From: Ignavibacteriota bacterium
Lineage (GTDB): Bacteria > Bacteroidota > Ignavibacteria > Palsa-1295
Assembly (NCBI GenBank): GCA_963787835.1
Contig: CAWBEI010000001.1
Span: 1 to 64,000 of the forward strand
Direction: 5' to 3'
Length of the DNA stretch: 64,000 bases
Shown: positions 10,003 through 33,200 of the stretch, piece after piece
Layout of the letters: every line of letters begins with the position of its first letter
How positions within the stretch are numbered: the first letter of the stretch is position 1
Made by a program: the position numbers and the translations under genes
The notes under the pieces: generated by a model
Seen by the model: only the letters and a program-made list of their open reading frames with translations
Database searches by the model: none
What the model was told of the DNA's origin: nothing

Positions 10003-13000
10003 ATGAAACGATTTCTGTCATTGCTCGCGACCGGAGCGCTAACGCTTGGTCTTACCGTTTCTGCATCAGCCCAACGTCGTGGGTTAAGTGGGGCAGCCCT
10101 CGTGCTCGACGATTATCATGGGCATACCATTACTATGGAGACCCCACAATTGACGTCTCCACCAAATGCAGAATATTTGGCATGGGAAAATGCTGGTTTC
10201 CCCCCGCTTACTTGGACCGCACCCGTGCCGCCAATTACCGGTGCACAGGCAGGATTCGTTTTTTCCGGTCCGTTGACCCCGGCTTCGATCACCCCGTACC
10301 TTTCCTATTGGCTCCCACCGGGAGTTACTAGCCCCTATACTGGCAATAAGGGCGGTTACGCCGGCGCGTGGGATTATGCCACGACGAATCAGCTCGGCCT
10401 TCTTACCACGGGTTCACCCCTTGGCGATCAAGAAAATGTCGTTACAGATGCCTCTGGCCATCTCATCACGCAAGCGAATGGCGGCAACAATACGGTATTG
10501 CATGGCACGACCCCTCCGAGTTGGGGCGCAGTGGTAGATGGCGACATTACCGCAGCTACCATCACCAGCGACCGATTGGCAAATACTGCTGTATCGGCAG
10601 GTAGCTATGGGGATGCGACGCACACCGGTACTTTCACTGTAAATGCCGAAGGACAACTTACTGCTGCTTCGAGTACACTTATTACACTTTCCGGCGATGT
10701 AACAGGCAACGCAGGTGCTACGACGATCGCGAACACCTCAATCGGTGGCGGTCATATTATCGCCGCCTTGACGACGAATGGCGGTACATTGACCAATAGC
10801 ACGACAGGCAATGCATCCACGGCAACTAACGCGACGAACGCCGCGAACTTATCCGGTTCGAATTTAACGGGTGACGTGACGAACGTTGGCGACGCAACCA
10901 CGATCGCGAACACGTCGGTTGGTGGTGGTCATATTATCGCCGCGCTGACGACGAACGGCGGCACGCTTACGAATAGCACGACAGGCAATGCTGCTACGGC
11001 AACAAACGCAACGAATGCTGCTAACCTTACGGGCTCGAACCTGACAGGTGATGTTACGAATGTAGGCGATGCAACAACGATCGCGAACACCTCTGTTGGC
11101 GGCGGCCACATCATCGCAGCATTGACAACGAACGGTGGCACGCTCACGAACAGCACGACAGGTAATGCTGCAACGGCCACGAGTGCAGCCAACCTTACGA
11201 GCTCGAACCTGACAGGTGACGTCACAAACGTTGGTGATGCAACCACGATCGCGAACACCTCAATCGGCGGCGGCCACATTATAGCTGCTTTGACGACGAA
11301 CGGCGGTACACTCACGAATAGCACGACAGGTAATGCTGCAACGGCCACGAGTGCAGCCAACCTTACGGGCTCGAACCTTACGGGCGACGTGACGAATGTT
11401 GGCGACGCAACGACGATCGCGAACACCTCAATCGGTGGCGGTCATATTATAGCTGCTTTGACGACGAACGGCGGTACACTCACGAATAGCACGACAGGTA
11501 ATGCTGCAACGGCCACGAGTGCAGCCAACCTTACGGGCTCGAACCTTACGGGTGACGTGACGAACGTAGGTGACGCAACAACGATCGCGAACACCTCAAT
11601 CGGTGGCGGTCATATTATCGCCGCCTTGACGACGAATGGCGGTACATTGACCAATAGCACGACAGGCAATGCCTCCACGGCAACAAATGCGACGAACGCC
11701 GCGAATTTATCCGGTTCGAATTTAACGGGTGACGTGACGAATGTTGGCGACGCAACGACGATCGCGAACACCTCTGTCGGTGGCGGTCATATTATCTCCG
11801 CCTTGACGACGAATGGCGGTACGCTTACGAATAGCACGACTGGCAATGCATCCACGGCAACAAACGCGACGAATGCCGCGAATTTATCCGGTTCGAATTT
11901 AACTGGTGACGTGACGAATGTTGGCGACGCAACGACGATCGCGAACACGTCGGTTGGTGGTGGTCACATCATTGCCGCGTTGACGACGAACGGCGGTACG
12001 CTCACGAACAGCACGACAGGCAATGCCTCCACGGCAACAAACGCAACAAGCGCCGCGAACTTATCCGGTTCGAACTTAACGGGTGACATGACGAACGTTG
12101 GTGACGCGACAACGATCGCGAACACCTCGACAGGCGGCGGCCACATCATCGCAGCCTTGACGACAAACGGCGGTACGCTGACGAACAACACCAGTGGCAC
12201 TGCGTCATCGGCAACGTCCGCTGCAAATCTCACTGGCTCGAACCTTACGGGCGACGTGACGAACATAGGTGACGCAACGACGATCGCGAACACGTCGGTT
12301 GGTGGTGGTCACATCATCGCCGCGTTGACAACGAACGGCGGCACGCTTACGAATAGCACGACTGGCAATGCCTCCACGGCAACAAACGCGACGAATTCTG
12401 CGAACTTATCCGGTTCGAACCTTACGGGCGACGTTACGAACGTAGGTGATGCCACCACGATCGCGAACACCTCCGTCGGTGGCGGTCATATTATCGCCGC
12501 CTTGACGACGAACGGCGGTACGCTGACGAACAATACCTCTGGTAGCGCGGCATCAGCAGCCAATCTTACTGGCTCGAACCTTACAGGTGACGTGACGAAC
12601 GTAGGTGACGCAACGACGATCGCGAACACCTCCGTCGGTGGCGGTCATATTATCGCAGCCTTGACAACGAACGGTGGAACGCTCACGAACAGTACGACGG
12701 GTAATGCCGCGACTGCTACGAGTGCAGCCAACCTTACGGGCTCGAACCTTACTGGTGACGTGACGAATGTTGGCGACGCAACAACGATCGCGAACACCTC
12801 AGTTGGCGGCGGCCACATCATCGCCGCCTTGACGACGAATGGCGGTACACTGACGAATAACACCTCGGGCAGTGCAGCATCAGCAGCCAATCTTACAGGT
12901 TCGAACTTAACGGGTGACGTGACGAATGTTGGCGACGCAACAACGATCGCGAACACCTCTGTCGGTGGCGGTCATATTATCTCCGCCTTGACGACGAATG

Positions 13001-16000
13001 GCGGTACATTAACCAATAGCACGACAGGCAATGCCTCCACGGCAACAAATGCGACGAACGCCGCGAACTTATCCGGTTCGAATTTAACGGGTGACGTGAC
13101 GAACGTAGGTGACGCAACGACGATCGCGAACACCTCAGTTGGTGGCGGCCACATTATAGCTGCTTTGACGACGAACGGCGGTACACTCACGAATAGCACG
13201 ACAGGTAATGCTGCAACGGCCACGAGTGCAGCCAACCTTACGGGCTCGAACCTTACGGGTGACGTGACGAACGTAGGTGACGCGACAACGATCGCGAACA
13301 CCTCAGTTGGTGGCGGCCACATTATAGCTGCTTTGACGACGAACGGCGGTACGCTCACGAACAACACCTCGGGTAGCGCGGGATCGGCAACGAATGCGGC
13401 AAACCTGACCGGCTCGAATTTGACGGGTGACGTGACGAACGTAGGTGACGCTACGACGATCGCGAACACCTCTGTCGGCGGGGGTCACATTATCGCCGCC
13501 TTGACGACGAACGGCGGTACGCTCACGAACAGCACGACAGGCAATGCCTCCACGGCAACAAACGCGACGAACGCCGCGAACTTATCCGGTTCGAACTTAA
13601 CGGGTGACGTGACGAATGTTGGCGACGCAACAACGATCGCGAACACCTCAGTTGGCGGCGGCCACATCATCGCCGCCTTGACGACGAATGGCGGTACACT
13701 GACGAATAACACCTCGGGCAGTGCAGCATCAGCAGCCAATCTTACAGGTTCGAACTTAACGGGTGACGTGACGAATGTTGGCGACGCAACAACGATCGCG
13801 AACACCTCAGTTGGTGGCGGCCACATTATAGCTGCTTTGACGACGAACGGCGGTACACTCACGAATAGCACGACAGGTAATGCTGCAACGGCCACGAGTG
13901 CAGCCAACCTTACGGGCTCGAACCTTACGGGTGACGTGACGAACGTAGGTGACGCGACAACGATTGCGAACACGTCCACTAGCGGCGCTGACATTATAGC
14001 CGCTTTGACGACGAACGGCAGTACGCTCACGAACAACACCTCGGGTAGCGCGGGATCGGCAACGAGTGCAGCAAACCTGACCGGTTCTAATCTAACCGGT
14101 GATATTACGAACGTAGGTGACGCAACGACGATCGCGAACACCTCCGTCGGTGGCGGTCATATTATCGCCGCCTTGACGACGAACGGCGGTACGCTCACGA
14201 ACAGCACGACAGGCAATGCTGCCACGGCAACAAGCGCCGCGAACTTATCCGGTTCGAACTTAACGGGTGACGTGACGAACGTAGGTGACGCAACGACGAT
14301 CGCGAACACCTCAGTCGGTGGCGGCCACATCATCGCCGCGTTGACAACGAACGGCGGCACGCTTACGAATAGCACGACAGGCAATGCTGCCACGGCAACA
14401 AGCGCGACGAACGCCGCGAACTTATCCGGTTCGAACTTAACGGGTGACGTGACGAACGTTGGCGACGCTACGACGATCGCGAATACCTCAATCGGTGGCG
14501 GTCATATTATCGCCGCCTTGACGACGAATGGCGGTACATTGACCAACAGCACGACAGGCAATGCCTCCACGGCAACAAATGCGACGAACGCCGCGAACTT
14601 ATCTGGTTCGAACCTTACGGGCGACGTTACGAACGTAGGTGATGCCACCACGATCGCGAACACCTCGACAGGCGGCGGTCATATTATCGCCGCGTTGACG
14701 ACGAACGGCGGTACGCTCACGAACAACACATCGGGAACTGCCTTGAATGTGACTGGCATCGTAGGTGTAGCCAACGGCGGTACAGGTGCAAATCTTTCGT
14801 CGACAGGCGGTACTTCGAATGTTTTATTGCAATCGAGCACTGGTGCTCCCATCACAGTGGGCCAGCTTTCATCGAGCGATCTATCCGATGGTGGTTCACT
14901 TGCGACAACGAGCTATGTAGATAACGCGGTTAATAACGCACTGTCATCCGCCAATTCCTATACGGATAACGCAGTCAGCAACGCGATCACGCTCACCGAG
15001 GGCTACACGGATAACGCAGTCAGCAACGCGGTCACGCTCACCGAGGGCTATACGAACACCGCAGTTAGCAACGCGATCACGCTCACCGAGGGCTATACGA
15101 ACACCGCAGTTAGTAACGCGATCACCACATCTGAGAGCTATACTGATTCAAAGGTCGCTAATTATCTTCCACTTGCCGGTGGCATTATGACGGGTGCGAT
15201 CGACATGGGAACCCCGAACAATCAGATCAATGATCTGAAGGACCCGACATCGCCACAGGATGCGGCGACGAAGAATTATGTCGATAACGCGATCGGTTCT
15301 TACACCCCGACGCCTTCGTTTAGCGCCATCGCGACGGGTGTTAATGCTACGGCCACTATGACTGTAAATACTGGCGCCTCGCTCACGTATGAGAACGACG
15401 GCACCATCAATGCGTCAAGCCTTGAAAGCGCAACATGGGAAGCACCGGGAACCATCGGGAGTGGCACGCCGAATACCGGTGCATTCACTACGTTAAGCGC
15501 GGCACCCACAAGCGATGTTGTTGCCGTTCAGATCACTGGATTTAGCGGAGGTACCTCCGCTGACGTGAACGCGAACAATTGGAGCGTTTCCCATGCGGGT
15601 GCCGGTACCTTCAATGGAGGTCTCTCCTTAAACGGTGCCGCAACACCCGTTGCGAACGAGATCCAGTTCTACAATGGAACCTCCACCTCGCAGGGTACAC
15701 TTGCTTCGGCTGCCTCGGCCAATACTCCGACCTGGACGCTTCCCGACGAAACCGGTACCATCGCGCTTGTAAGCCAGCTCCCAACGGCTACTAATTTCAT
15801 TGTGAATTCCGGTTCCGTTCAGTCCGGTGCGCAATTTAATATTAGCGGCAATGGCACGATAGGCGGTGTCCTTTATACCACCGACATTGAAGATCCGCCC
15901 ACAGGATTGCATGTCAACACGTCCAGCGGAGGTAGTACCTCTATTGGTAACTCGAGCGGAGGGACTTCTATCACTGGTAAGAACTGGAGCGTGAACGATG

Positions 16001-16356
16001 CTACGGGTGCTGTTACGACCACGGGCAACATCTCGACAACGTCTTCCGGTACGATCACATCGGCGGGAACACTGACCGCTTCCGGTAACCTTGTTGGAGG
16101 TGGAAGCGTGCAGTTCCATACCATCACGACGATGGCTACTCCGTTCTACCAGGCACAGCCTTCCGATTATTACATTATCGTGAACACGGGCGGCACTGGC
16201 GTGAAAATGCCGGCCGGGGCCGTTGCAGGACAGAAGCTTATTATCACGAACGCCACGGCTACGGCGTTCACGGCAGCCAACAGCGACTTCGCTGTTCCGC
16301 CGGGAACCACTTGGAACCTCATTTTCGATGGCTCCAACTGGCAACTTGTCTTTTAA
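10003..16356 (+). CDS. Giant secreted repetitive fibre protein 1 (2117 aa), trimeric tail-fibre/adhesin-like
   Basis: Signal peptide ...SASA|Q; N-domain shared with 27236 and 30217; 24 tandem repeats; 15-residue YTD repeats; YLPLAGGIMTG; DAATKNYVD; C-terminal MP..G.KL.I.N...FDGSNW knob. Confidence 0.85.
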   Translation: MKRFLSLLATGALTLGLTVSASAQRRGLSGAALVLDDYHGHTITMETPQLTSPPNAEYLAWENAGFPPLTWTAPVPPITGAQAGFVFSGPLTPASITPYLSYWLPPGVTSPYTGNKGGYAGAWDYATTNQLGLLTTGSPLGDQENVVTDASGHLITQANGGNNTVLHGTTPPSWGAVVDGDITAATITSDRLANTAVSAGSYGDATHTGTFTVNAEGQLTAASSTLITLSGDVTGNAGATTIANTSIGGGHIIAALTTNGGTLTNSTTGNASTATNATNAANLSGSNLTGDVTNVGDATTIANTSVGGGHIIAALTTNGGTLTNSTTGNAATATNATNAANLTGSNLTGDVTNVGDATTIANTSVGGGHIIAALTTNGGTLTNSTTGNAATATSAANLTSSNLTGDVTNVGDATTIANTSIGGGHIIAALTTNGGTLTNSTTGNAATATSAANLTGSNLTGDVTNVGDATTIANTSIGGGHIIAALTTNGGTLTNSTTGNAATATSAANLTGSNLTGDVTNVGDATTIANTSIGGGHIIAALTTNGGTLTNSTTGNASTATNATNAANLSGSNLTGDVTNVGDATTIANTSVGGGHIISALTTNGGTLTNSTTGNASTATNATNAANLSGSNLTGDVTNVGDATTIANTSVGGGHIIAALTTNGGTLTNSTTGNASTATNATSAANLSGSNLTGDMTNVGDATTIANTSTGGGHIIAALTTNGGTLTNNTSGTASSATSAANLTGSNLTGDVTNIGDATTIANTSVGGGHIIAALTTNGGTLTNSTTGNASTATNATNSANLSGSNLTGDVTNVGDATTIANTSVGGGHIIAALTTNGGTLTNNTSGSAASAANLTGSNLTGDVTNVGDATTIANTSVGGGHIIAALTTNGGTLTNSTTGNAATATSAANLTGSNLTGDVTNVGDATTIANTSVGGGHIIAALTTNGGTLTNNTSGSAASAANLTGSNLTGDVTNVGDATTIANTSVGGGHIISALTTNGGTLTNSTTGNASTATNATNAANLSGSNLTGDVTNVGDATTIANTSVGGGHIIAALTTNGGTLTNSTTGNAATATSAANLTGSNLTGDVTNVGDATTIANTSVGGGHIIAALTTNGGTLTNNTSGSAGSATNAANLTGSNLTGDVTNVGDATTIANTSVGGGHIIAALTTNGGTLTNSTTGNASTATNATNAANLSGSNLTGDVTNVGDATTIANTSVGGGHIIAALTTNGGTLTNNTSGSAASAANLTGSNLTGDVTNVGDATTIANTSVGGGHIIAALTTNGGTLTNSTTGNAATATSAANLTGSNLTGDVTNVGDATTIANTSTSGADIIAALTTNGSTLTNNTSGSAGSATSAANLTGSNLTGDITNVGDATTIANTSVGGGHIIAALTTNGGTLTNSTTGNAATATSAANLSGSNLTGDVTNVGDATTIANTSVGGGHIIAALTTNGGTLTNSTTGNAATATSATNAANLSGSNLTGDVTNVGDATTIANTSIGGGHIIAALTTNGGTLTNSTTGNASTATNATNAANLSGSNLTGDVTNVGDATTIANTSTGGGHIIAALTTNGGTLTNNTSGTALNVTGIVGVANGGTGANLSSTGGTSNVLLQSSTGAPITVGQLSSSDLSDGGSLATTSYVDNAVNNALSSANSYTDNAVSNAITLTEGYTDNAVSNAVTLTEGYTNTAVSNAITLTEGYTNTAVSNAITTSESYTDSKVANYLPLAGGIMTGAIDMGTPNNQINDLKDPTSPQDAATKNYVDNAIGSYTPTPSFSAIATGVNATATMTVNTGASLTYENDGTINASSLESATWEAPGTIGSGTPNTGAFTTLSAAPTSDVVAVQITGFSGGTSADVNANNWSVSHAGAGTFNGGLSLNGAATPVANEIQFYNGTSTSQGTLASAASANTPTWTLPDETGTIALVSQLPTATNFIVNSGSVQSGAQFNISGNGTIGGVLYTTDIEDPPTGLHVNTSSGGSTSIGNSSGGTSITGKNWSVNDATGAVTTTGNISTTSSGTITSAGTLTASGNLVGGGSVQFHTITTMATPFYQAQPSDYYIIVNTGGTGVKMPAGAVAGQKLIITNATATAFTAANSDFAVPPGTTWNLIFDGSNWQLVF
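10693..14739 (+). repeat. 24 intragenic tandem repeats of 53/56/59 aa (159/168/177 bp)
   Basis: Unit GDVTNVGDATTIANTSVGGGHIIAALTTNGGTLTNSTTGNA(ATA/TNA)nANLTGSNLT, counted in the translation. Confidence 0.95.
14914..15147 (+). repeat. 45-bp (15-residue) Y-T-D/N coiled-coil repeats, six Y positions
   Basis: YVDNAVNNALSSANS YTDNAVSNAITLTEG YTDNAVSNAVTLTEG YTNTAVSNAITLTEG YTNTAVSNAITTSES YTD. Confidence 0.9.
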
Positions 16357-16458: not shown

Positions 16459-19400
16459 ATGACTTCCATTCGCAGATTCCTATCCCGCGCGGCCCTTGGC
16501 GCATTTGCCGCTTCGCTGTTCTTCGCCTCCGCGTCCCACGCACAAGTGCGTCAGACGAACATCTATATTGACAACGGTTCCGGAGCGTTCACCGACCTTA
16601 AGGGCGGCGGCACCGGAACGATCACGTTTCCGGCTGTAACCGGAACCGCCATCACCACCGGTAACCTTTCGGCTATTACCGGGCTCGGAACCATCAGCAG
16701 CGGCGTTTGGAACGGCACTGCGATCGGCCTGCAATATGGGGGCACCGGAGTCGATGGCACCAACATCGCCACCAATCTCTTCTTTGCCGGTCCGAATGGA
16801 TCGACCGGTTCGGCCACGTTCCGCGCGATCGCACCGGCTGATCTTCCTATCGCAACGACCACAACGTTAGGCGCAGTCGAAGCCGACGGAACTACTATCA
16901 CCATTACAGGTGGTGGCGTGATCAGCGCCGTTGCTGCAGCGCCGAGCGGTGCTGCCGGTGGGGATCTTGGTAGTACCTATCCGAACCCAACGGTTGTCAG
17001 CGTTGCGGATGTAACAACGGGTGTGCTCAAGATTGCGAATGGTGGTACGGGCGCAGCGACGGTTGGGTCTAACAACTTAGTCTTTGCGGGACCGTCCACG
17101 AGCGCACCGGGCGCACCCTCCTTCCGATCGTTGGTGGCCTCGGATATTCCTTCCCTCAGTGGTACCTATCTTCCGCTTGCGGGTGGTACCATGACGGGAA
17201 CGGAGACCTTCACCGTGTCTTCCGGCAATGACATTACCGGCGACTCGTGGAGTGTCGATAATGCTGGTAACGTAACGGCAACGAGCTTCTCCGGTGCAGG
17301 CACGGGTTTTACAGGAACTGCGACCAGCTTAAATATTGGCGGCAATGCAGCAACGGCAACCACTGCAGCGGCACTTTCACCGGGCGCGACGATCAACGGT
17401 GTGAACTTTACAGGCGCTGCTCCGATCACGGTGACAGCAGCGATGAATACGCTCACGGGTACCAACTACGCAGCAGGCAACGGCTCTGCAATTACGAATC
17501 TTTCCGGCGGTAATATCACCACAGGTACAGTTCCGTATGCTGCCATTCAGCAAGAGTCGGCTAACACGTTGCTCGGTAACCCGACAGCTGGGTCTCAAGC
17601 TCCGGAAGAGATCACGATCGGCACTGGAATCACGGTTACTGGAACGACGATCAGTGTCACCGGTGCACCGCCGACGGGTACAGCAGGGGGCGATCTTACG
17701 GGAAGCTATCCCGGCCCAACCATTGTGGGGACTGCCGGCAATGACATCGTGGATGCTATCAACAATGCAGCAACCACGCATAATATTAACAACACCGCTA
17801 TCAGCATAACGGCAGGCGCAGCAAACTTATCGAACATTACGGTAGCGCCGACGAGCGGTACCGCAATACAGATTAATAATGCAACCGTATCAACCTTTGA
17901 CATCTCGGCCAATAACTGGAATGTTCAACAAAGCGGTAATGCTAATTTTACCGGCGGTATAGGGGTTGGCTCGAACATTACCCACGTCGCGGGAACAGTT
18001 ACTATCTTGGATGGCACTGGAGGTTATGGCACATTGCAAGCCGCAGCTGCGATTCCCACCAACCCAGTTTGGACGCTACCCAATGCGACAGGTACTATCG
18101 CCCTTACAAGCCAGCTTCCAGCAGCCAACAGCTTTATCAACAATAGCGCAACGCAGCAAACAAGCGCAAACTTCAATATTGATGGCAGCGGCACCATTGG
18201 CGGTACGCTGAATGTCGATAATATCGAAGATGCTGTCGTGCTTCAGATCAACACCGGCGCTGGAAAGAACACAGAGATCGGTAATGCGTCGGGAACCACG
18301 ACAATTACGACAAGCAATTGGGGCGTCGATAATCTTGGTAACGTAACTGCAACGAGCTTCTCTGGAACCGGCTCTGCGCTCACGAGTCTTTCTGGCGCCA
18401 ATATTACCGCTGGCTCGATTCCGTATTCTGCCATTACTAATGAGACTGCAAGCACGCTGCTTGGTAATCCGACGGCAGGATCGGCTGCTCCGAGCGAGAT
18501 CACGCTTGGTGCTGGCCTCAGCTTCTCTGGAAATACGCTGGTGGGCACAGGCGGAACGGTAACCTCGGTTTCGGTGACGACGGCGAACGGCGTATCGGGT
18601 TCGGTAGCGAATCCGACGACGACGCCAGCGATTTCGCTGACGCTTGGTGACATCACCCCGACTTCGGTTGCGGCGACAGGCACGGTAACGGGTTCGAATC
18701 TTTCGGGTACAAACACTGGCGATCAGACGATCACGCTGACGGGTCCGGTAACGGGCTCCGGCACAGGAACCTTCGCGACGACGATCACGCCTTCGGCGGT
18801 GACGTATGGTGATATTCAGAACGAATCGACAGTCACGCTTCTCGGTAATCCGACGGCCGGATCGGCTGCTCCGAGCGAGATCACACTTGGTGCTGGCCTC
18901 AGCTTCTCTGGAAATACGCTGGTGGGCACAGGCGGAACGGTAACCTCGGTTTCGGTGACGACGGCGAACGGCGTATCGGGTTCGGTAGCGAATCCGACGA
19001 CGACGCCAGCGATCTCGCTGACCCTTGGTGACATCACACCAACTTCGGTTGCGGCGACAGGCACGGTAACGGGTTCGAATCTTTCGGGTACAAACACTGG
19101 CGATCAGACGATCACGCTGACGGGTCCGGTAACGGGCTCCGGCACAGGAACCTTCGCGACGACGATCACGCCTTCGGCGGTGACGTATGGCGATATTCAG
19201 AACGAATCGACAGTCACGCTTCTCGGTAATCCGACAGCCGGATCGGCTGCTCCCAGCGAGATCACGCTTGGTGCTGGCCTCAGCTTCTCTGGAAATACGC
19301 TGGTGGGCACAGGCGGAACGGTAACCTCGGTTTCGGTGACGACGGCGAATGGCGTCTCTGGTTCGGTAGCGAATCCGACGACGACGCCAGCGATCTCGCT

Positions 19401-20856: not shown

Positions 20857-20866
20857 TCCATCGAAT

Positions 20867-21050: not shown

Positions 21051-24000
21051 ATGAATATCAAAACGCTTTTGGGTCGTGCTGCGACGCTCGCAGTAGGTTC
21101 CTTATTGCTTTTCACGTCCGTTTCTCGCGCACAGGTCCCGCAGACCAAGATCTACCTTTCGGATGGATCTGGCAATATACTCACACTCTCCGCGCTCGGC
21201 AGCGGCGGTGGAACCCTCACGCTTCCCAGCGGCGGCGGTACGCTGCTGACGATGGTGGGCGGGAACTCCTCGCTCGGCACCGTTACCAGCGGTACATGGC
21301 AAGGCACGATGATCGGTTCCGCTTACGGCGGGACGGGCCTGACCTCGTACGCCACGGGAGACATTCTCTATGCCTCGGCTACGAATACGCTATCGGCGCT
21401 GCCTATTGGCGGTCCTGGGCAGGTGCTCGAAGTCGTCAGCGGGGTTCCATCATGGCAGACGGTTGGAGGAACCGGAACGGTGACCAACTTTACGAGCGGT
21501 AACCTTTCGCCGGTCTTCACGACTTCGGTCGCAACATCCACGACCACCCCGGCGCTTACCTTCGCACTTTCTAACGCGGGGCCGCATACCTTCTTAGGGA
21601 ATTCCACCGGCACGTCGGCGGCGCCAACGTATAGCGCGGTCGATCTTTCGGCGGACGTCACCGGGCTGCTGCCGATCAGCGCACTCAACACGACGGGAAC
21701 CGCATCGAGCACCACGTATCTCCGTGGCGATGGCGCGTGGACGACGCTGCCCGCGGCACCCGTCACCAGCGTATCGAACTCCGATGGCAGCCTGACCATC
21801 TCGCCCACGACGGGTGATGTCGTTGCTTCGCTGAATGTCGCAAATCCGAACACGTGGACCGGCGCACAATCCATCATACCAGGCGCGAACGACGTCGTTG
21901 GCCTGACCATCAAGCCGGCTACTGCGTTCGACAAGGATGCCTTCGATGTGCTCTCGCTCGATGGGAGTACCACCTATCTCGGAGTGTTTCCCGGTGGCAC
22001 GGTCGGTATCACCACCATTGCTGTGAAGGGCGGAGATATTAATGGAGCCACGATCGGCGATCTCCTTCCGGAGGCAGGAACGTTCTCCGCGCTTACGTCG
22101 ACAACCGGCCTGACGCTTGGCTCCGGCGCGAACGCCACCACGCTTTCGAGCGCGGCGACGGGTTCTGCCAAGTCGGTGAACCTGCCGAACGCCAACGGTA
22201 ATCTTGCCCTCGTGGCAAGCACGACGGGTCAGATCATGGAAAGCGATGTTTCAGGTCTCGTCAGCGACCTTGCGAGCAAGGGTTCGGGAACGGTTACTTC
22301 TGTGAATGTGGCGATACCCGGTATGACCTCCTCCGGAGCTGTTACCACAAGCGGTACTATTTCTATGAGCGGCGCACTTGCGGTCGCCAATGGCGGAACG
22401 AACTCCTCCGCTGCGCTCACGAACAATAAAGTAATGATCTCCAGCAGTGGCGCCATCGTCGAAGGTCCGGCGTGGGCGGCTGGCTCGCCAGGCACGCTTA
22501 CGGCGAACATCACCGGCAGTGCGGCCTCCGCGACTACCGCAGCGGGACTATCCTCCACGCTGGCGGTGACGAGCGGCGGAACGGGAACTGGAACCGCACC
22601 TACGAGCGCGCAAATTCTTGTCGCGCAGTCCGGAACGGCATACGCGCCGGAAACGGTCGGCGGCGATGCTACGATCACTACAGGTGGGAACCTGGTCGTT
22701 ACCAAAACGAATGGAGTAGCATTTGGATCGGCTGCTACAGCGAACACTTCCGCATTCGATGCCAGCGGTGCGGCAACGACTGCCGTCAATACTGCCGTCA
22801 GCGGGACATCGGGGAAACTGGCCGTCTTTAACGGAACGAATTCCGTTACGAGCGGACCTGCGTATTCCAGCGGCGCACTCACGCTCGGCACAGGATCTTC
22901 CGTTCCAGGGACGATAGCCCTTGCCAATACCACCAACTCGAATTTAACAACTATCGAGGCCGGTGCGCCTGGTGCTGCTATTACCTATATGTTGCCAACG
23001 ACGGCACCGACGGCTAACCAAGTATTACAGTCATCGGCACCTGTTTCTAACGTGGCTACGCTCAGTTGGACGAGCGCAGCTTCGGGAACGGTAACTGGCA
23101 GCAGTTTCACCACCGAGGGCGTGATGTATGCCACAAGCGGAACGGGAATTGCGAGCACGGCAGCGTTGGCGAATGGACAGATCCTTGTTGGCGCGGGTAG
23201 CAGCACAGCACCTTCACCAGCCACGCTGGGCACGAGCAACGGCGTTACGACAGCGGTCGGTGCGGGTACGCTTTCCATCGGACTGGGTGCGATCACGCCG
23301 ACATCGGTTGCTTCGGCTGGAGCAGTCTCTGGAACCACACTCACGGCATCAACTGCCGCCAGCGGACTTGTACTTGGTTCCGGTGTGAATGCGACAACCT
23401 TTTCGAGTGGAGCTACAGCTGCGAGAGCCATCAGCTTCCCGGATGCGGCAGGTACGGTTGCACTGACGACCAGTAACGTTGCAAGTGCCACCAATATTGC
23501 AACGACATTGAATAGCGCCACTGCTACCGCAATGTACCCCACGTTTGTAGCCTCCAATACAACAAGCAACTCACAGGCAGCCAACGTCGCGACTGCACTG
23601 AGCTTCGTACCCTCGACTGGTGTGCTTTCGGCGACGACTTTCTCCGGAAGTGGTGCTTCGTTGACAAGCATTCCGAACTCGGCGCTGACGAACAATTCCA
23701 TCACCATTCAGGGAACCGCCGTCGCGCTCGGCGGGACAACGCTTGCGACGACAAGCACGCCTACGTTTGGGGGAATGACCCTTACTCCTACTGGCTCTAC
23801 GGTTGGTCTTACGATCAACGGTTCCTCATCTGGTAATGATATTACTGGCACGAACTGGTCGGTGACTCACGCAGGTGCGGGAACATTCGTTGGTTTAACC
23901 AATGCAGGTGCAGCAGTTAGTTTGAACAATAGTTCAAATTTTTCAACCAGCATCAACACCGGAACATCAACCGCAGCAGTGCATATTGCAGATGGAACAA

Positions 24001-25172
24001 CGGGCGGCAATGCAATCACTATCGGTAATGCTGTGAGCACAACCGCTGTCACAGTTCTTGCTGGCAGCGGTAATATCAATATCGGTACAGGAACCACGGC
24101 TCAGACGGTGCACATTGCTGACGGCGCGGCAGCGAACGCTGTAACACTCGGTTCCACGACTACTACTTCTACCACAACCATAGCGTCAGGTTCCGGCGGA
24201 GTGCTAATCAACAATGCCAACAACCAACCGACGAGCCTGAACACGGGAACCTCAACCGGCGCATTGCATCTTGCTGATGGGGGTACAGGAGGTAATGCCA
24301 TCACAATGGGTAATGCTAATGGCGCTACCGGTATTACGGCAAAGGTCGGAACAGGTAATTTTAGCCTCGATGGAGCTGCAACCTCAACGTACGCTATTGG
24401 TGCCTCCACCACGTCCGGCACAATTACCATTGGCGGTACGGGGGAAACCGGCAATTTGACACTCGGTTCAAGCACTGGCACGAACACAGAAATTATTGCT
24501 GGTGGATCGGGTGCAACCACGCTACAAATTGCTAATGCACAGACTGGCGGTTCGGTCGCGATTGGAACCGCTATGACGTCCGGCACGATCACAATCGGAG
24601 GTGCGGTTGCACAAACGGGAACCATCATTTTAGGCCAGTCCACTGGCACGAATACCATTGATGTTGGAACGGGAACTGGCGCGACCACGGTAGATATTGC
24701 CACCGGCGCAACGAATGCCAAGACCGTTGCTATTGCGAATGGAGCCGTTGCCAATACTGTTACCATCGGCTCGACAACTGGCGCCGCTACTACTACTCTT
24801 CAAGCTGGCACAGGCGGCAACGTCATCGTTGGACATCTTGTTGACGGGAACTCGTCAAATATTGCGTATACTAGTACCGGAAGTACGGATGTCACCTCTA
24901 CTGTTGTAACTGCTACTTCCGATCTTTCCGGAAACATTTCAGTTACACCCTCGGCAACCCATGCTATTACAGCTGCATTTACGTTCGCAAAAACTTTTGC
25001 GAATGCTCCAATAATAGTTATTACCCCCACAAATACTAATTTCGCCACCGGATTTAATACTCCTGCAGCTCCGATAATTTCTGCAACCTCAACTTCTGGC
25101 TTCAGTGTAGAATTTTATTCGACTGGGAGCGGTAATGCATTCACCTTCAATTATATAATCATGGGCCAGTAA
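21051..25172 (+). CDS. Secreted fibre protein 3 (1373 aa) with H-type-lectin/gp53-like C-terminal tip
   Basis: Signal peptide ...VSRA|Q; YATGDILYASATNTLSALPIG, TTYLRGDGAW and GTITIG repeats; C-terminus FAKTFANAPIIVITP...STSGF...FNYIIMG. Confidence 0.8.
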   Translation: MNIKTLLGRAATLAVGSLLLFTSVSRAQVPQTKIYLSDGSGNILTLSALGSGGGTLTLPSGGGTLLTMVGGNSSLGTVTSGTWQGTMIGSAYGGTGLTSYATGDILYASATNTLSALPIGGPGQVLEVVSGVPSWQTVGGTGTVTNFTSGNLSPVFTTSVATSTTTPALTFALSNAGPHTFLGNSTGTSAAPTYSAVDLSADVTGLLPISALNTTGTASSTTYLRGDGAWTTLPAAPVTSVSNSDGSLTISPTTGDVVASLNVANPNTWTGAQSIIPGANDVVGLTIKPATAFDKDAFDVLSLDGSTTYLGVFPGGTVGITTIAVKGGDINGATIGDLLPEAGTFSALTSTTGLTLGSGANATTLSSAATGSAKSVNLPNANGNLALVASTTGQIMESDVSGLVSDLASKGSGTVTSVNVAIPGMTSSGAVTTSGTISMSGALAVANGGTNSSAALTNNKVMISSSGAIVEGPAWAAGSPGTLTANITGSAASATTAAGLSSTLAVTSGGTGTGTAPTSAQILVAQSGTAYAPETVGGDATITTGGNLVVTKTNGVAFGSAATANTSAFDASGAATTAVNTAVSGTSGKLAVFNGTNSVTSGPAYSSGALTLGTGSSVPGTIALANTTNSNLTTIEAGAPGAAITYMLPTTAPTANQVLQSSAPVSNVATLSWTSAASGTVTGSSFTTEGVMYATSGTGIASTAALANGQILVGAGSSTAPSPATLGTSNGVTTAVGAGTLSIGLGAITPTSVASAGAVSGTTLTASTAASGLVLGSGVNATTFSSGATAARAISFPDAAGTVALTTSNVASATNIATTLNSATATAMYPTFVASNTTSNSQAANVATALSFVPSTGVLSATTFSGSGASLTSIPNSALTNNSITIQGTAVALGGTTLATTSTPTFGGMTLTPTGSTVGLTINGSSSGNDITGTNWSVTHAGAGTFVGLTNAGAAVSLNNSSNFSTSINTGTSTAAVHIADGTTGGNAITIGNAVSTTAVTVLAGSGNINIGTGTTAQTVHIADGAAANAVTLGSTTTTSTTTIASGSGGVLINNANNQPTSLNTGTSTGALHLADGGTGGNAITMGNANGATGITAKVGTGNFSLDGAATSTYAIGASTTSGTITIGGTGETGNLTLGSSTGTNTEIIAGGSGATTLQIANAQTGGSVAIGTAMTSGTITIGGAVAQTGTIILGQSTGTNTIDVGTGTGATTVDIATGATNAKTVAIANGAVANTVTIGSTTGAATTTLQAGTGGNVIVGHLVDGNSSNIAYTSTGSTDVTSTVVTATSDLSGNISVTPSATHAITAAFTFAKTFANAPIIVITPTNTNFATGFNTPAAPIISATSTSGFSVEFYSTGSGNAFTFNYIIMGQ

Positions 25173-25999: not shown

Positions 26000-26035
26000 T
26001 AACGTTCGTTGAATGTTCTTTGAGGCAGTGATTCT

Positions 26036-26389: not shown

Positions 26390-26447
26390 GGGAGGGGAAC
26401 TGCACAGTCCAAATTGATGTGGCACGATTCTTCGTCATCAAATCAGG

Positions 26448-26642
26448 ATGGATCCGTGCAATCAAGCGATCAGTATTGAATTATCACTTGAAAGTGTTAG
26501 AATTCAAGCGTTTCAGGCGTTTGCAACCTCGAGTGTGGAGAAGTTCGTATCATATTGCAAGGAAAAGAATCTTTCACCATCGTATTATAATTTTACGGCC
26601 TGGCTCGCCGTGATATCAGAGCTTAATGCGATAGAGTTATAG
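26448..26642 (+). CDS. Small hypothetical protein
   Basis: 64-aa ATG ORF followed by its own terminator-like hairpin (26679-26718). Confidence 0.4.
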   Translation: MDPCNQAISIELSLESVRIQAFQAFATSSVEKFVSYCKEKNLSPSYYNFTAWLAVISELNAIEL

Positions 26643-26751
26643 TTGTTTGCCACGATATCGCAACTAAGGTCCGCCAATAGAAGACTCCTCACACGATCGC
26701 AACGTGTGGGGTTTTTCTATAAATGGGAACCAGGAACGGAAGTATCCCAAG

Positions 26752-26848
26752 AAAAAAGGCTTGCACCATCTAATAAGTGCAAGCCCCTATGAATGTTGTT
26801 GCCGATCTCCCACACATATAGAGAACGACCGGCTCATTCATCTCCGCA
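26752..26848 (-). ncRNA. Candidate ECF-sigma-driven small RNA
   Basis: Minus strand: GGAAC-N16-CGTT (26879-26855), long G-U-containing hairpin (26841-26789), terminator GGCTTGCAC...GTGCAAGCC-T6. Confidence 0.5.
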
Positions 26849-27092
26849 AATAGCAACGTTCAATCCCTTTGCAAGTTCCATGAAAACGGTGCCGTGAAAA
26901 CTGAAAATGCCCAAAACATAGTTGTCTTTTCAAATATTTTAAGAAAACGTTTTCTTATAGACGTATTGTGTGGTTCCCCCTCATTTAGGTAGAACTAAGA
27001 TTACCCATGATTGTTTTCAGAGCCGCAACCCGATTCAGGCGGACCGTCAGTAATGGGGAGACGTTTTTATCAGGTTGTTTGGTTGCGAATAT

Positions 27093-27121
27093 AAAACCCC
27101 GTTATCGCAAGCGGGGTTTTT
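27093..27121 (+). terminator. Terminator-like hairpin ~115 nt upstream of fibre gene 4
   Basis: AAAACCCCGTTATCGCAAGCGGGGTTTTT. Confidence 0.65.
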
Positions 27122-27235
27122 ATAGCGTGAATGATCCGCCTTCACTTTCGTAATCACTATTAGTCTTTGCTTCGAATATTTGAAAAACTTCCCAGTTTTT
27201 TGTTCTTTCAACGCTCGTAAACGAAACAAAATAGT

Positions 27236-29827
27236 ATGAAACGCACAGTACAGTTCCTGGTAGCAAGTGTATTAGTACTCGGTCTCACAACATTCGCTTC
27301 GGCACAGACCCGAGGTATTTCCGGTGGGGCGCTCGTGCTCGATGATCTTCACGGTGACTTCATGACGCTGACGACGCCACTCTATGGCTCGCCAGAGTGG
27401 GAAGCCTGGGCGTTCGAGGGTTTTCCGAACGTGTGGTATGCTCCGGTTCCACCGGCAAACGGCGCGCAAGATGCGTTCATCTATTCGGGACCGATCCCTG
27501 CGTATGGTACGGGTTCCATCAACCCGCCATTGATCGCGTATTGGGTTCCACCGGGAGTGCAGGGTGTCAATAATATCGGCGGCGCAGCCGGTGCGTGGGA
27601 TTACGCTACTGCCGGTCAGCTTGGGATCAGCGGAGCGGGTGATAACCTCGCACAATACGTCATCCCAATGAGCGATGGTGCCGGTGACTGGATTGCTTCC
27701 AGCCTCACCGATAATGGCACGACGGTTAACACACCTGAGGATATATCGCCGAACACCCTTACCTTGCCGAATCTTTACACATTTAGCTCACCGTCGCAAA
27801 ACGACCTTAGCTTGACGAGTATCGATAACACGTTCAATCTTCATTTGAATACAGATGCCACAGATGGCCCGGGTGCAGGCCAATTCAATATTTATTTTTC
27901 CGGCAATGGAAGCCCGACCTTTTCTGTGCTTGACGATGCTGTCCAGCTTGATGGCGGCGGCGAAGAGCTTGATCTTAATGGCGACGCTGGTACTGGGGGT
28001 GAATTCCTCGAAAGCCAGGGTGGTGGTTTTACCCCGATCTGGGCGACTGCTGTTACCGAGGTTGATGCAGGAACCGGTTTGACCGGCGGTCCGATCACCA
28101 CGTCGGGTACTCTTTCGATCGCGAATTCAGGCGTAGAAGCCGGTACGTACGGTGATGCGACGGATGTTGGGCAATTTACGGTCAATGCCCAAGGCCAAAT
28201 TACCAGTGCGAGTGACGTGAGCATTCTGCTTCCGAACGCGAATCTTGTTAATCCAGGCTTAACGATCAATACAGGCGCTGGGCTTACTGGCGGTGGTGCG
28301 GTTGCGCTCGGTGGTTCGCTCACGCTTTCGATACCTGCGGACGGCGTGACGAATGCAATGCTTCAACATTCGAGCTTAACGGTGACATCGGGCACGGGTC
28401 TTTCCGGTGGCGGCGCGATCTCACTTGGCGGTTCGGGAACCTTGAACATTGCCAATACCGGTGTGAGTGCTAACACATACGGCGATGCAACGCATGTTGG
28501 TTCGTTCACGGTCAATGCACAGGGACAGCTTACGAACGCGGCTAGCACAAGCATTCTGCTTCCGAATGCGAATCTCGTAAACTCCAGCTTAACGGTAGGA
28601 ACAGCGGCAGGTAGCGGGCTTTCAGGCGGAGGCGCCGTATCGCTCGGTGGTTCGCTTGCACTTTCGATCCCAGCAGGCGGTGTAACGAATGCCATGCTTG
28701 CAAACAACAGTTTAACGGTAACGGCAGGAACGGGATTGTCAGGTGGCGGTGTGGTTGCTTTAGGTGGCTCGACGACGCTTAACATTGCGCCAGGCTATAT
28801 CGGTCAATCCTCGATCACAACGCTTGGCACGATTACGACCGGCACGTGGCAGGGAACACCGATCGCCAACGCATATCTTGCAAATTCCAGCCTGACGGTT
28901 GGTACTGCGGCAGGCAGCGGTTTTACCGGCGGTGGTGTTGTATCGCTCGGTGGTTCACTCGCACTTTCGATCCCAGCAGGCGGTGTAACGAATGCGATGC
29001 TTGCAAACTCTGGCATAACGGTCACTGCGGGCTCTGGCTTGGGTGGTGGTGGCGCTGTTTCGCTTGGTGGAACAGTTACACTCACCAATGCCGGTGTGAC
29101 CTCGATCGCGGGCACTGCAAATCAGATCACTGCTTCAGCTTCGACTGGGGCAGTAACACTTTCCCTGCCGAACACCGTGAATATCGGTGCAGCAACACCC
29201 ACAGCGGGCCAGATCGGACTTTACAATGGTACCAATGCAAACCTTACCTCGATCAAGGCAGGCACGCCGGCGGCTGCGATCACGTACGTTCTTCCAACGA
29301 CCGCCCCAACGGCAGGCCAGGTGCTTTCATCGAGCGCTCCCTCTGGTGGTGTTGCGACGACGTCATGGACTACGCCGGCGAGTTCTGGCTTATGGGATGG
29401 AGATGTGTTGTTAGGAGCCGATTACACCAACACGACAACAACTCAATCGTCTATTCTTTCCTTCGCGTGTTCGGCATCGACGACCTATGAACTTGAGGGC
29501 TGGCTCGATGTCTCCTCCAATGCTTCACAGACTGGGGTGGGCCTTGCGCTCACTTCCGACGGCACGGGGTCTGTGGTTTCGCTTTTCACGAACGGCCCGC
29601 AAGATCTCACCGCATATGGAGGCAATGGTGCTACCGGAAGCGGTTCCTTGACACAAACTAATAATAATTATTTCAAAGTTTCAATGGAAGGCTTTCTCCA
29701 TTTTTGGGCACTCGTCAAATCTGGTACAGGAGCTACGACGATCAATTTGATGGGGGCTAATACCGGAACTCCTAATACTATGACGGTCTTTGCCGGGAGT
29801 CATATGTTCTATAGAGTGCAGCCATAA
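27236..29827 (+). CDS. Secreted fibre protein 4 (863 aa)
   Basis: Signal peptide ...FASA|Q; shared N-domain RGISGGALVLDD...GAWDYAT; six LANSSLTVTAGTGLSGGGxVxLGG-type units; beta-sandwich-like tip. Confidence 0.85.
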   Translation: MKRTVQFLVASVLVLGLTTFASAQTRGISGGALVLDDLHGDFMTLTTPLYGSPEWEAWAFEGFPNVWYAPVPPANGAQDAFIYSGPIPAYGTGSINPPLIAYWVPPGVQGVNNIGGAAGAWDYATAGQLGISGAGDNLAQYVIPMSDGAGDWIASSLTDNGTTVNTPEDISPNTLTLPNLYTFSSPSQNDLSLTSIDNTFNLHLNTDATDGPGAGQFNIYFSGNGSPTFSVLDDAVQLDGGGEELDLNGDAGTGGEFLESQGGGFTPIWATAVTEVDAGTGLTGGPITTSGTLSIANSGVEAGTYGDATDVGQFTVNAQGQITSASDVSILLPNANLVNPGLTINTGAGLTGGGAVALGGSLTLSIPADGVTNAMLQHSSLTVTSGTGLSGGGAISLGGSGTLNIANTGVSANTYGDATHVGSFTVNAQGQLTNAASTSILLPNANLVNSSLTVGTAAGSGLSGGGAVSLGGSLALSIPAGGVTNAMLANNSLTVTAGTGLSGGGVVALGGSTTLNIAPGYIGQSSITTLGTITTGTWQGTPIANAYLANSSLTVGTAAGSGFTGGGVVSLGGSLALSIPAGGVTNAMLANSGITVTAGSGLGGGGAVSLGGTVTLTNAGVTSIAGTANQITASASTGAVTLSLPNTVNIGAATPTAGQIGLYNGTNANLTSIKAGTPAAAITYVLPTTAPTAGQVLSSSAPSGGVATTSWTTPASSGLWDGDVLLGADYTNTTTTQSSILSFACSASTTYELEGWLDVSSNASQTGVGLALTSDGTGSVVSLFTNGPQDLTAYGGNGATGSGSLTQTNNNYFKVSMEGFLHFWALVKSGTGATTINLMGANTGTPNTMTVFAGSHMFYRVQP

Positions 29828-30216: not shown

Positions 30217-32730
30217 ATGAAACGCTCTTTGTTAATCCTCGTGGCCGGCGTATTCGCGCTCGGCCTGTCAACCACTGCTTCGGCTCAGCTCCGAGGCATT
30301 TCCGGCGGGGCTCTCGTCCTCGACGATTATCATGGTAACAGCATGACGCTGACCACCCCTCCGTATGGTTCCCCAGAATGGGAAGCGTGGGCGCTTGAGG
30401 GTTTCCCGAATACGTGGTATTCGCCGGTGCCGCCGCAAAACGGAGCCCAAGATGCCTTCATCTATTCTGGACCGATTCCGACCTACGGCACGGGTTCCAT
30501 CAATCCACCCTTAATTGCTTATTGGGTTCCACCGGGAATCACGGGCATTAATAATGTCGGCGGCGCAGCCGGAGCGTGGGATTACGCCACTGCGGGCCAA
30601 CTCGGTATCGGCGGGGCTGGTGATAACCTTGCACAATACGTCATCCCAATGAGCGATGGTGCCGGTGACTGGGTTGCTTCCAGCCTCACTGATAATGGCT
30701 CGGTGCAGACTCCTGAGGACTTTTATGCGAATTCGCTCAATCTGCCAAATTCGTATTCACTCTATACCCCTGGGATTGATAACCTTACACTTGGCAGCAT
30801 CGATAATACGTTCAACCTTGTGCTGAATACCGATAACGATGCACCGGGTGCTGGTCAGTTCAATGTCTATCTTGATGGCAACGGCACAGCCGCCATGTCC
30901 GTTACGACTGCTCAAACAACTATTAGCAGCCTCGGCACTGGCGTGGTACACTCGGATGCTTTCGGAGACCTCTCCTCGAGCCTGATCGTTAATGGCGATA
31001 TTACTAATGGCACGATCGCTAATAACAAGCTTGCGAACTCCAGCTTAACGGTAACGGCAGGAACAGGATTGTCCGGCGGCGGTGTGGTTGCCTTAGGTGG
31101 CTCGACGACGCTTAACATTTCGCCTTCTTATGCTGGTCAAACCTCGATCACAACGCTCGGCACGATCACAACGGGTACATGGCATGGGACACCAATCGCA
31201 AACGCATATCTTGCGAACTCCAGCCTTACGGTCGGAACAGCGGTAGGCAGCGGTTTTTCGGGCGGCGGCTTAGTATCGCTTGGCGGTTCCCTCGCGCTTT
31301 CGATCCCAGCGGGCGGTGTAACGAATGCCATGCTTGCAAACAACAGTTTAACGGTAACGGCAGGAACGGGATTGTCCGGCGGTGGTGTGGTTGCCTTAGG
31401 TGGCTCGACGACGCTTAACATTGCACCAGGGTATGCTGGTCAAACCTCGATCTCCACGCTCGGAACGATCACAACCGGCACCTGGGATGCTACGCCCATT
31501 GCCAACTCCGAGCTTGCAAACTCCAGCTTGACGATCGGCACAGCGGCAGGCAGTGGACTGAGCGGCGGCGGCTTAGTATCGCTTGGCGGTTCCCTCGCGC
31601 TTTCGATCCCTGCAGGCGGCGTAACGAATGCCATGCTTGCAAACAACAGTATAACGGTAACGGCAGGAACGGGATTGTCAGGCGGTGGTCTGGTTGCTTT
31701 AGGCGGCTCGACAACGCTTACTAATGCCGGTGTGACCTCGATCGCTGGCACTGCAAATCAGATCACGGCTTCTGCTGCTACCGGCGCCGTAACGCTTTCT
31801 CTGCCTGCGACGATCAATGTTAATACGAGTGGCAATGCTGCAACCGTAACTAATGGTGTTTATACAACTGGTAGCTATTCAGATCCAACATGGATCACCT
31901 CTATCAGCGGAAGTATCGTTTCTGGTACGGTTGCGAGTGCGACCACTGCTACGAACGCGAATAACGTGGCAACCACGGCAGTAACAACAAATGCGACCTT
32001 TTACCCGCTCTTTGTAGCTTCCTCAGCAAATGGCAATCAGGCCGTCGATCTTGATGCAAGCGGTTATGGGTATAATCCTTCAACCAATACACTCACACTT
32101 GGTGCGGCTGGCACGGCCACTGGCAACCTTTCATTGGGTAATGGCACAGGAGCGAACTATACGACGATTCAGGCTGGTGCTTCTGCACCTGCAGTAACCT
32201 ACATTCTGCCGACAGCGTTGCCCGGTGCGGCGAACGATGTACTTCAGGCTAACGGGACGACGAGTCCGGTGCAGCTTTCATGGGTAGCTCCTTCGGGAGG
32301 TGGAGGTTCACCATTATACAGCCAAACCTCATCAGTTAACACGGCTGCATATAACTACACGACAACGGCGCACATGGCTGGAGTAGGTGCCACGTTTAAG
32401 CCGAACTCCACAGGCCATATGCTTCTCACTATTACTGGTGATCTTACATGCACTGAGTCTTCATCCGGCCCGAGTATCACTGGGCAGGCTTACTATGGGA
32501 CAGGAACAGCCCCTGCTCAGGGTGCAACGGTTTCAGGCACAGCCATTGGCAGCTTGTGCGTTGTTTCTCCAATCGGAGGAGGCCACTCAGAAGAGGCGCC
32601 TTTCACGGTCTCGTATTATGGCACGTTTACGGTCGGCACTACCTACTGGGTTGATCTCGCTTGCACCGTTACGAACGCATCTACAGGCACCGTCAATAAT
32701 GTCGAGCTTACGGCTATCGAATTGCCGTAA
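30217..32730 (+). CDS. Secreted fibre protein 5 (start reassigned to ATG 30217), close paralogue of fibre 4 with a different tip
   Basis: MKRSLLILVAGVFALGLSTTASA|Q; N-terminal region nearly identical to fibre 4; five stalk units; C-terminus ...GTTYWVDL...LTAIELP. Confidence 0.85.
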   Translation: MKRSLLILVAGVFALGLSTTASAQLRGISGGALVLDDYHGNSMTLTTPPYGSPEWEAWALEGFPNTWYSPVPPQNGAQDAFIYSGPIPTYGTGSINPPLIAYWVPPGITGINNVGGAAGAWDYATAGQLGIGGAGDNLAQYVIPMSDGAGDWVASSLTDNGSVQTPEDFYANSLNLPNSYSLYTPGIDNLTLGSIDNTFNLVLNTDNDAPGAGQFNVYLDGNGTAAMSVTTAQTTISSLGTGVVHSDAFGDLSSSLIVNGDITNGTIANNKLANSSLTVTAGTGLSGGGVVALGGSTTLNISPSYAGQTSITTLGTITTGTWHGTPIANAYLANSSLTVGTAVGSGFSGGGLVSLGGSLALSIPAGGVTNAMLANNSLTVTAGTGLSGGGVVALGGSTTLNIAPGYAGQTSISTLGTITTGTWDATPIANSELANSSLTIGTAAGSGLSGGGLVSLGGSLALSIPAGGVTNAMLANNSITVTAGTGLSGGGLVALGGSTTLTNAGVTSIAGTANQITASAATGAVTLSLPATINVNTSGNAATVTNGVYTTGSYSDPTWITSISGSIVSGTVASATTATNANNVATTAVTTNATFYPLFVASSANGNQAVDLDASGYGYNPSTNTLTLGAAGTATGNLSLGNGTGANYTTIQAGASAPAVTYILPTALPGAANDVLQANGTTSPVQLSWVAPSGGGGSPLYSQTSSVNTAAYNYTTTAHMAGVGATFKPNSTGHMLLTITGDLTCTESSSGPSITGQAYYGTGTAPAQGATVSGTAIGSLCVVSPIGGGHSEEAPFTVSYYGTFTVGTTYWVDLACTVTNASTGTVNNVELTAIELP

Positions 32731-33200
32731 TGGTTCCGGATAGATTTGTAGTGAAACGGGTGCTCATAGCACCCGTTTTGCATTTTTGCTTGATTGTTTG
32801 CGTCCTCCTCGCTTGGGGTGGGATGCTGGCTTTGTTCAATGGTTGCTCGAGTTCACAGCCGATCGTAACACCAACTCAAGGTGCTATTAAGGCCCCGTTG
32901 GTACTTATGTCCGAAACGGATACGATACAGTCCGATAAAGAACTCGATGCATATCCGACGGTGCAGCATTTTATCAATCCCAGATCAGACACGGTCTTCT
33001 CTGTATTTCTTCCGTCGAAACAGGTTGCACCGGGAACCCTCCTCATTCTGATGTGTGATAATAAAACGATCACAACACCATACGTTAAAGTTCACTTCGA
33101 TCACGAAGATAGTATCCCTGCACTGCTTCTTTCCGGAGAGCAGACAAATATCTTCCTGTATGGGAGCGATAAGCGCTGGCGCTTGTTCGATCTGGAATAA
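32730..33200 (+). CDS. Probable lipoprotein with fibre-knob-like domain, coupled to fibre gene 5
   Basis: TAATG overlap; LALFNGC lipobox-like; VFLPSKQVAPGTLLILM...IFLYGSDKRW pattern. Confidence 0.6.
   Translation: MVPDRFVVKRVLIAPVLHFCLIVCVLLAWGGMLALFNGCSSSQPIVTPTQGAIKAPLVLMSETDTIQSDKELDAYPTVQHFINPRSDTVFSVFLPSKQVAPGTLLILMCDNKTITTPYVKVHFDHEDSIPALLLSGEQTNIFLYGSDKRWRLFDLE

Follow-up and report, generated by a model that had tools for sequence, protein, structure and literature searches.

Chromosomal fibre genes of an Ignavibacteriota bacterium encode Sec-exported, MAT-like proteins predicted to join end to end

The analysed window, a stretch of 64,000 nucleotides from the genome of an Ignavibacteriota bacterium (G000), carries a chromosomal array of fibre genes. 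Their Sec-exported, likely trimeric products resemble the mosaic adhesive trimer (MAT) fibres of Bdellovibrio and are predicted, with somewhat better than even confidence, to join end to end. What is new here is a strict order of socket and then plug in relatives of this bacterium, where ends of the C-terminal subtype T1a stand ahead of genes with a D1 start.

Five co-oriented genes of the sizes claimed in the initial annotation were present on the forward strand, all as intact open reading frames. A 2-kb spacer parts them into two blocks. Gene 1 (10003..16356, 2117 aa) encodes a signal peptide, a genus-conserved N-domain termed C-long (10072..10401), a stalk, six Tyr repeats and a T1 tip (16051..16353), a gp9/XD1-like beta-sandwich that we propose as socket for gene 2. 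The C-long domain falls outside known families and also starts genes 4 and 5. Gene 2 (16459..20856, 1465 aa) has a signal peptide, a short, conserved Cq N-peptide (16543-16722) as the proposed plug, 127-aa repeats (DUF5907) and a second T1 tip (20533-20853). Gene 3 (21051..25172, 1373 aa) combines a signal peptide, a Cq N-peptide (21132-21311), a stalk and an H-type lectin-like tip (24840-25169). In the spacer behind it (25173-27235) lie hairpins that look like terminators, a direct repeat and an ORF of 102 aa (25691-25999); short ORFs of this kind also occur inside the syntenic array of the relative G009. In the second block, gene 4 (27236..29827, 863 aa) and gene 5 (30217..32730, 837 aa from ATG) both consist of a C-long N-domain, a stalk and a tip (29405-29824 and, TNF-like, 32338-32727). 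A sixth ORF on the same strand, gene 6 (32730..33200, 156 aa), lies within the stretch previously assigned to the five and encodes a predicted lipoprotein with a lipobox-like Cys and a single T1 domain.

The biased composition reported earlier was confirmed: G, T, S, A and N together make up 58-70% of the five proteins and K, R, D and E 4-6%, and among the genome's ORFs of at least 300 aa gene 1 ranks first, gene 3 second and gene 2 seventh in this respect. The stalk motifs named there were found as well, though unevenly distributed. Among the five, YLPLAGGxMTG and ANGGTG occurred in genes 1 and 2 only, and DAATKNYVD and the six Tyr repeats of 15 residues were limited to gene 1, which also holds 17 copies of GNAxTAT. 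The gene 1 stalk comprises 23 repeats of 53-59 aa; that of gene 2 shows five motif starts spaced 127 aa and matches DUF5907. Besides this match, whole-protein scans of the five returned a weak H_lectin match for gene 3 and one NCBIfam match below cut-off.

The flanks are housekeeping genes, rpoZ upstream (9300..9671, forward strand, a weak match to PF01192), which marks the array boundary, and polA downstream. None of the five matched a PHROG at E 0.001, and the window gave no match to tRNA or Rfam families. Fibre genes, of differing content, occupy the rpoZ-adjacent site also in G001, G003 and G009. The polA gene itself appears as two overlapping ORFs (33247-36175; 5'-3' exonuclease, then proofreading and polymerase), probably owing to a sequencing indel, and several fibre paralogues on contigs C2 and C4 are split likewise. 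Elsewhere in the window, the gene of a T9SS-tailed subtilase containing BNR repeats (45071-48154) is inserted between NADH dehydrogenase subunit genes, and a TIR + TPR protein is encoded at 61271-63016, TIR-like starts being found also at C2:884627-888227.

Each of the five carries a signal peptide ending in A-x-A before Gln, as judged by pattern and by eye, as had been noted. Gln at this position is ordinary in this genome, where it follows the signal peptide of 82/125 CTD-like ORFs. Such a Q-rule for signal peptides has reportedly been the subject of published work. The five were without match to Por_Secre_tail, TIGR04183, TIGR04131 or YadA, which bears out the stated lack of a T9SS CTD and of a YadA barrel, and Peptidase_S74 gave zero matches on them. 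The T9SS is encoded elsewhere in the genome (3.57 Mb, 98% complete), which has SprA and no fewer than 148 matches to type A CTDs above the cut-off; searches of it for a YadA anchor or an autotransporter barrel gave nothing. Gene 6 is a possible membrane-held socket. As a general anchor this lipoprotein was ruled out, being encoded in only 2/41 genomes.

About 40 fibre-like ORFs, some of them pieces of split genes, were counted in this genome, and their N-termini fall into the classes TYQG, C-long, Cq, D and others. TYQG, which none of the five carries, had 11 matches and D-class starts 10; C-long is shared by genes 1, 4 and 5 with two more genes, and Cq by genes 2 and 3 with one more. The C-long domains of genes 4 and 5 are 87% identical. 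All 8 tested TYQG domains matched NF053851 (Bdello_MAT_N) at 16-40 bits, below the cut-off of 60. This MAT base, a beta-rich domain of ~130 aa after the signal peptide, matched 0/5 N-termini of the window at E 1. The C-long domain, too, could be ruled out as a MAT base, with no NF053851 match and E 0.61 against the TYQG profile. One TYQG paralogue ends in S74 and another has the tip of gene 5. As the five lack MAT_N and have tips in common with TYQG paralogues, they consist of MAT-like parts without the defining base.

In taxonomic terms, TYQG occurred in 24/24 family genomes with 3-27 copies each, and C-long in 14/14 genomes of the genus, 17/24 of the family and 0/16 outside the family. Searched against 1.84 billion proteins, the C-long profile hit 99 clusters, in 98 of them within the first 70 residues. 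An Atlas search with this domain gave leads only, all below 0.9. Tip and base profiles, run against the sequences of solved structures, yielded nothing convincing. Close homologues found in the analysis were labelled Bacteroidota or Candidatus Kapabacteria, which suggests a Kapabacteria-like lineage. On viral contigs, 0/27 pattern hits were confirmed for the C-long domain and 0/18 for T1a; a genome-collection scan returned one locus. In G002, G006 and G014, C-long heads proteins of 612-721 aa whose C-terminal parts are not fibre-like (GTSAN ~0.42; L039:17197-19038, L040:7837-9783, L041:13155-16842, L042:481-2643 and L045:9056-11182), so that the domain may display other cargo.

Distinct C-terminal domains had been proposed for all five proteins, but genes 1 and 2 have tips of one family, T1. 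The gene 5 tip was modelled (pLDDT 86) with a TNF-like fold, matching PLTL lectin (Z 12.2, rmsd 2.6, 123 aligned), Pgp3 (Z 11.1) and the MAT Bd2734 (Z 10.3, rmsd 2.5, 114 aligned), and is common to one MAT-base paralogue and four other paralogues. The gene 3 tip matched H_lectin at E 3.6e-5, with 24.2 bits against a cut-off of 24. That of gene 4 resembles phage proteins and, weakly, TNF/C1q-like lectins; the Atlas placed it at 0.96 with tailed-phage clusters, and this likeness is a lead because its recognition of 2172 stays under the mark of 2300. The folds of the gene 5 and gene 3 tips are typical of homotrimers, and from such fold relatives, together with the complex model presented below, we infer that the five are likely trimeric. 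The tips shared with MAT-base paralogues, the TNF-like fold as in Bd2734 and the conserved site after rpoZ in three relatives support the proposal of host-encoded, MAT-analogous fibres with variable tips outward.

The gene 1 T1 tip (pLDDT 72.5) gave as best fold matches the glycan-binding modules of CpaA (6O38, Z 10.2, rmsd 3.9, 100 aligned) and StcE (Z 8.6), then a depolymerase C-domain (Z 7.9), and it matched TSP4 80-176 with Z 6.7 (rmsd 2.5, 77 aligned). According to the cited passages of PMC8825819, TSP4 80-176 is XD1, of one fold with the CpaA module and T4 gp9. With the match being to XD1 by the same source, T1 is probably not a phage XD2/XD3 branching domain; XD2/XD3 ranges were absent among the listed T1 fold matches. 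By sequence, the gene 1 tip matched PF25692 at E 6.9e-5, a family that matches 31/46 T1 members at E 0.05. A T1 profile built without rows from the window scored the gene 1 tip at 28 bits and the gene 2 tip at 24, the best non-fibre end at 11 and the best of 400 shuffles at 8.7. Against the T1a profile alone, the two tips matched weakly in a profile-profile comparison (E 0.024 and 6e-4). The receptor-binding role assigned to all tips probably does not apply to genes 1 and 2. At L011:7862-11347, L046, L122 and L137, fibres contain T1 three times internally, and these copies may act as branch points or spacers.

Gene order was compared across relatives, in loci picked for their nearness to D or T1 hits; loci of related genomes are not independent, and the counts are raw. 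A recurring order was a T1a-ended head gene, then a gene with a D1 start and another T1 end, then D2-start genes with variable tips. Over all loci, 22/22 ORF ends scoring at least 126 bits with the T1a profile were followed by a D1-type start; 21 of these ends had built the profile and L157 was fetched later by another search. Ends with 46-110 bits were followed by such a start in 0/30 cases, two of the 30 having short downstream sequence. The 22 junctions are spread over 19 genomes belonging to 4 genera, and their upstream heads were TYQG (MAT-like) in five cases, C-long in five and other or open in 12. A T1 end preceded 24/34 D2 starts, 3/20 C-short, 1/6 C-long and 0/2 TYQG starts. Directly 5' of D2 genes, a T1 lipoprotein was encoded on contig C2 of this genome and in G006. 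Many T1-ended genes had no fibre gene behind them, and across the phylum T1a was detected in 2/200 sampled genomes, weakly. At L107 and L110, T1 ends with an RTF-type motif preceded genes starting QH-x-x-Q. As socket and plug adjoin on the DNA, linkage alone can keep a pair together, and linkage and shared descent can account for part of the gene-order pattern.

From a sister pair of adjacent genes on contig C4, outside the window, three T1a domains and three D1 N-termini were modelled together, with alignments of 21 rows. The 3+3 complex scored 0.92, 0.91 and 0.92, the best of three controls 0.00; contact agreement between runs was at least 91% and partner pLDDT at least 84. The score mark is reached by 116/157 solved complexes and 2/215 mismatched pairs, counts that are only rough for this job. 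Close cousins can pass, the controls include zero non-cognate socket-plug pairs, and Gln1 stood unmodified in the model. The T1 trimer is predicted to meet the N-peptides head-to-tail across the three-fold axis, socket residues 89-103 and 119-120 facing plug residues 1-5, 7, 9, 14 and 17-20 (1-9 as summary range). Interface columns conserved in 90-100% of rows were L89, P90, G91, L97, G101 and N120 in the socket and Q1, K4 and T9 in the plug; conservation at the interface was only modestly higher than in the rest (0.66 vs 0.59; 0.72 vs 0.56). In gp9, gp10 and TSP4, XD1 does not bind trimers across the axis, owing to linkers on both faces, as stated in the cited passages of PMC8825819. Here the docking face would be free because T1 is C-terminal. 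The model supports socket-plug binding without showing it, and we consider docking within the T1a/D1 family highly probable.

How far does this carry over to the window? Read in order, genes 1, 2 and 3 present a T1 end, a Cq start, a T1 end, a Cq start and a lectin tip. Junctions 1-2 and 2-3 both recur in G014, in unchanged order and with identities of 59/79% and 58/65%; the G014 genes are in pieces. A T1 end stood upstream of 6/12 Cq starts with an upstream neighbour; 12/24 Cq genes had no such neighbour at all. The N-peptides of the window did not score with the D1 profile, and profile-profile comparison with D1 was weak (C-long E 6e-4 at a probability of 28%, Cq E 0.03). For the window pairs gene order alone, and for the sister pair a predicted complex, points to an N-terminal docking peptide. 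From both together, docking at the junctions 1-2 and 2-3 appears moderately probable. Gene 1 is then likely the first chain segment, gene 2 likely a middle one and gene 3 likely the terminal, binding segment. The five had been described as lacking a recognisable anchor. This holds for known families, but the fixed gene order and the sister-pair model point to a protein anchor that was not considered there: a second fibre, through its tip, likely takes the role of the missing anchor.

T9SS-tagged adaptors are a plausible root of such chains, and export may depend on them as well. A protein of ~175 aa that pairs a short N-domain with a CTD-like end was present in 26/30 family genomes, mostly as one copy, which did not adjoin fibre arrays in loci of +/-1.5 kb. 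A second adaptor type lay directly 3' of a TYQG fibre in 4/4 loci fetched; in this genome, a TYQG protein of 348 aa is followed by a T9SS-tagged CTD protein of 147 aa (C2:717492-718986, L166). The C-part of the former may be a phage tail-collar domain, and a 1125-aa ORF at the end of L165 (C2:1212089-1215466) has a possibly Cas9-like start. Plug-only segments may cross the outer membrane through the T9SS while bound to a partner, which we offer as a guess. The TYQG base was also seen in proteins labelled Armatimonadota, Elusimicrobia, Chloroflexi and Uhrbacteria, which suggests that its holder cannot always be T9SS-linked. C-long takes the place of TYQG at chain heads and would be either a second kind of base or the plug for an unlinked socket.

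The fibres could instead act as independent MAT-like adhesins, each held by its own N-terminus on a surface receptor and with every tip, T1 included, binding glycans; the fixed junctions would then stem from recombination of a block made of a gene end and the next start. The likeness of T1 to the CpaA and StcE glycan-binding modules and the depolymerase C-domain fits this account, as do the Cq genes that have no fibre gene upstream (12/24) and the linkage of the gene 5 tip to gene 6, which recurs in a paralogous pair on contig C2. We regard it as rather unlikely, however, since it fails to account for the complex model, which scored high while its controls were negative and in which the interface is formed by the conserved start of the downstream protein. 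Nor does it account for the strict pairing of subtypes across 4 genera or for the T1 lipoproteins ahead of D2 genes in two genomes.

Chained fibres might also be released or shed, as filaments of the extracellular matrix, of vesicles or as decoys, or be retained in the periplasm, and so not be anchored to the cell. The lack of an anchor or export tag on the five would agree with this, as would the restriction of gene 6 to 2/41 genomes. Yet a root is on offer in the MAT-base paralogues, which share tips with the five and head 5/22 chains, and possibly in the conserved T9SS adaptor, and Bdellovibrio MATs are surface-located according to the cited passages of PMC10769870; we therefore judge this to be improbable. 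Phage-like motifs and tip folds recall a prophage, tailocin or contractile-injection remnant, or a non-trimeric S-layer or beta-helix family. The signal peptides on all five, the housekeeping flanks, the site conserved in relatives, the lack of confirmed C-long (0/27) or T1a (0/18) relatives on viral contigs and the tip folds typical of homotrimers make such an origin very improbable.

We thus return to chains that join end to end. T1, as a C-terminal gp9/XD1-like socket, would hold the N-terminal residues of the fibre that follows, so that genes 1, 2 and 3 would yield a single filament with a lectin-like tip, near 300 nm long for 4,877 residues by extrapolation from the Bd3182 model of 550 A given in the cited part of PMC10769870. 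Genes 4 and 5 would each supply a lone segment whose tip serves in binding. As the root of a chain we envisage either a T1 lipoprotein or a MAT-base fibre that a small adaptor with a T9SS tag holds in place, and the chain would presumably serve in binding surface glycans. Tentatively, and with some doubt, we propose a new class of appendage: a socket-plug kit of separately exported trimeric fibres that join outside the cell in set order, long and possibly branched where T1 is internal, rooted on a MAT-type base with its T9SS adaptor and ending in exchangeable lectin tips.

The cited part of PMC10769870 leaves open by what means MAT-like fibres are attached to cells, and that of PMC8825819 describes the function of XD1 as not understood. 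A socket-plug rule, if true, would partly answer both questions: the XD1/gp9 fold would gain a docking role, and the display of anchorless fibres would be explained. Hypothetical proteins would become a testable assembly pathway, and cells would have a means of reaching further and exchanging specificities that needs no pilus machinery. In addition, orthogonal connectors between trimers would be useful protein building parts. A literature search, with most subscription papers outside its scope, returned no report of cell-encoded fibres chained end to end.

Separate trimeric fibre proteins in series, with genes in assembly order, are known from the long tail fibre of phage T4 (gp34-gp35-gp36-gp37). 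It differs in being part of a virion, in its cytoplasmic assembly and in its fixed composition. The tip fibrilla of Bacillus ENA is reportedly a trimer with a C1q/TNF-like head, whose short N-terminal connector docks to another filament; these are Gram-positive spore pili with collagen stalks, and the socket is unrelated. Trimeric autotransporter adhesins (type Vc) share the trimeric stalk motifs and the N-terminal signal peptide, whereas here the polarity is reversed and no YadA anchor or barrel was found in the genome. The Bdellovibrio MAT fibres (PMC10769870, cited in part; NF053851) are alike in their large chromosomal set, signal peptide, mosaic stalk and swappable tips, in the TNF-like fold of Bd2734, and through paralogues here with a MAT_N-like base, one with S74. 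The analogy drawn in the initial annotation therefore stood for tips and repertoire, but did not extend to membership: the window's five lack the invariant MAT base (0/5) and S74, and their host has a T9SS. The cited part of PMC10769870 does not describe MATs as joining end to end, which is predicted here from genes and model. In branched phage receptor-binding complexes (CBA120 TSP1-4, KP32 gp37/gp38, G7C), docking is by XD2/XD3 jelly rolls near the N-terminus, as described in the cited parts of PMC13352976, PMC11414711 and PMC8825819. The putative socket here is XD1-like and C-terminal, and would build linear chains on a cell, in a host context with signal peptides and not on a virion. The array, as proposed, works like a MAT repertoire combined with branched phage receptor-binding complexes and is a member of neither.
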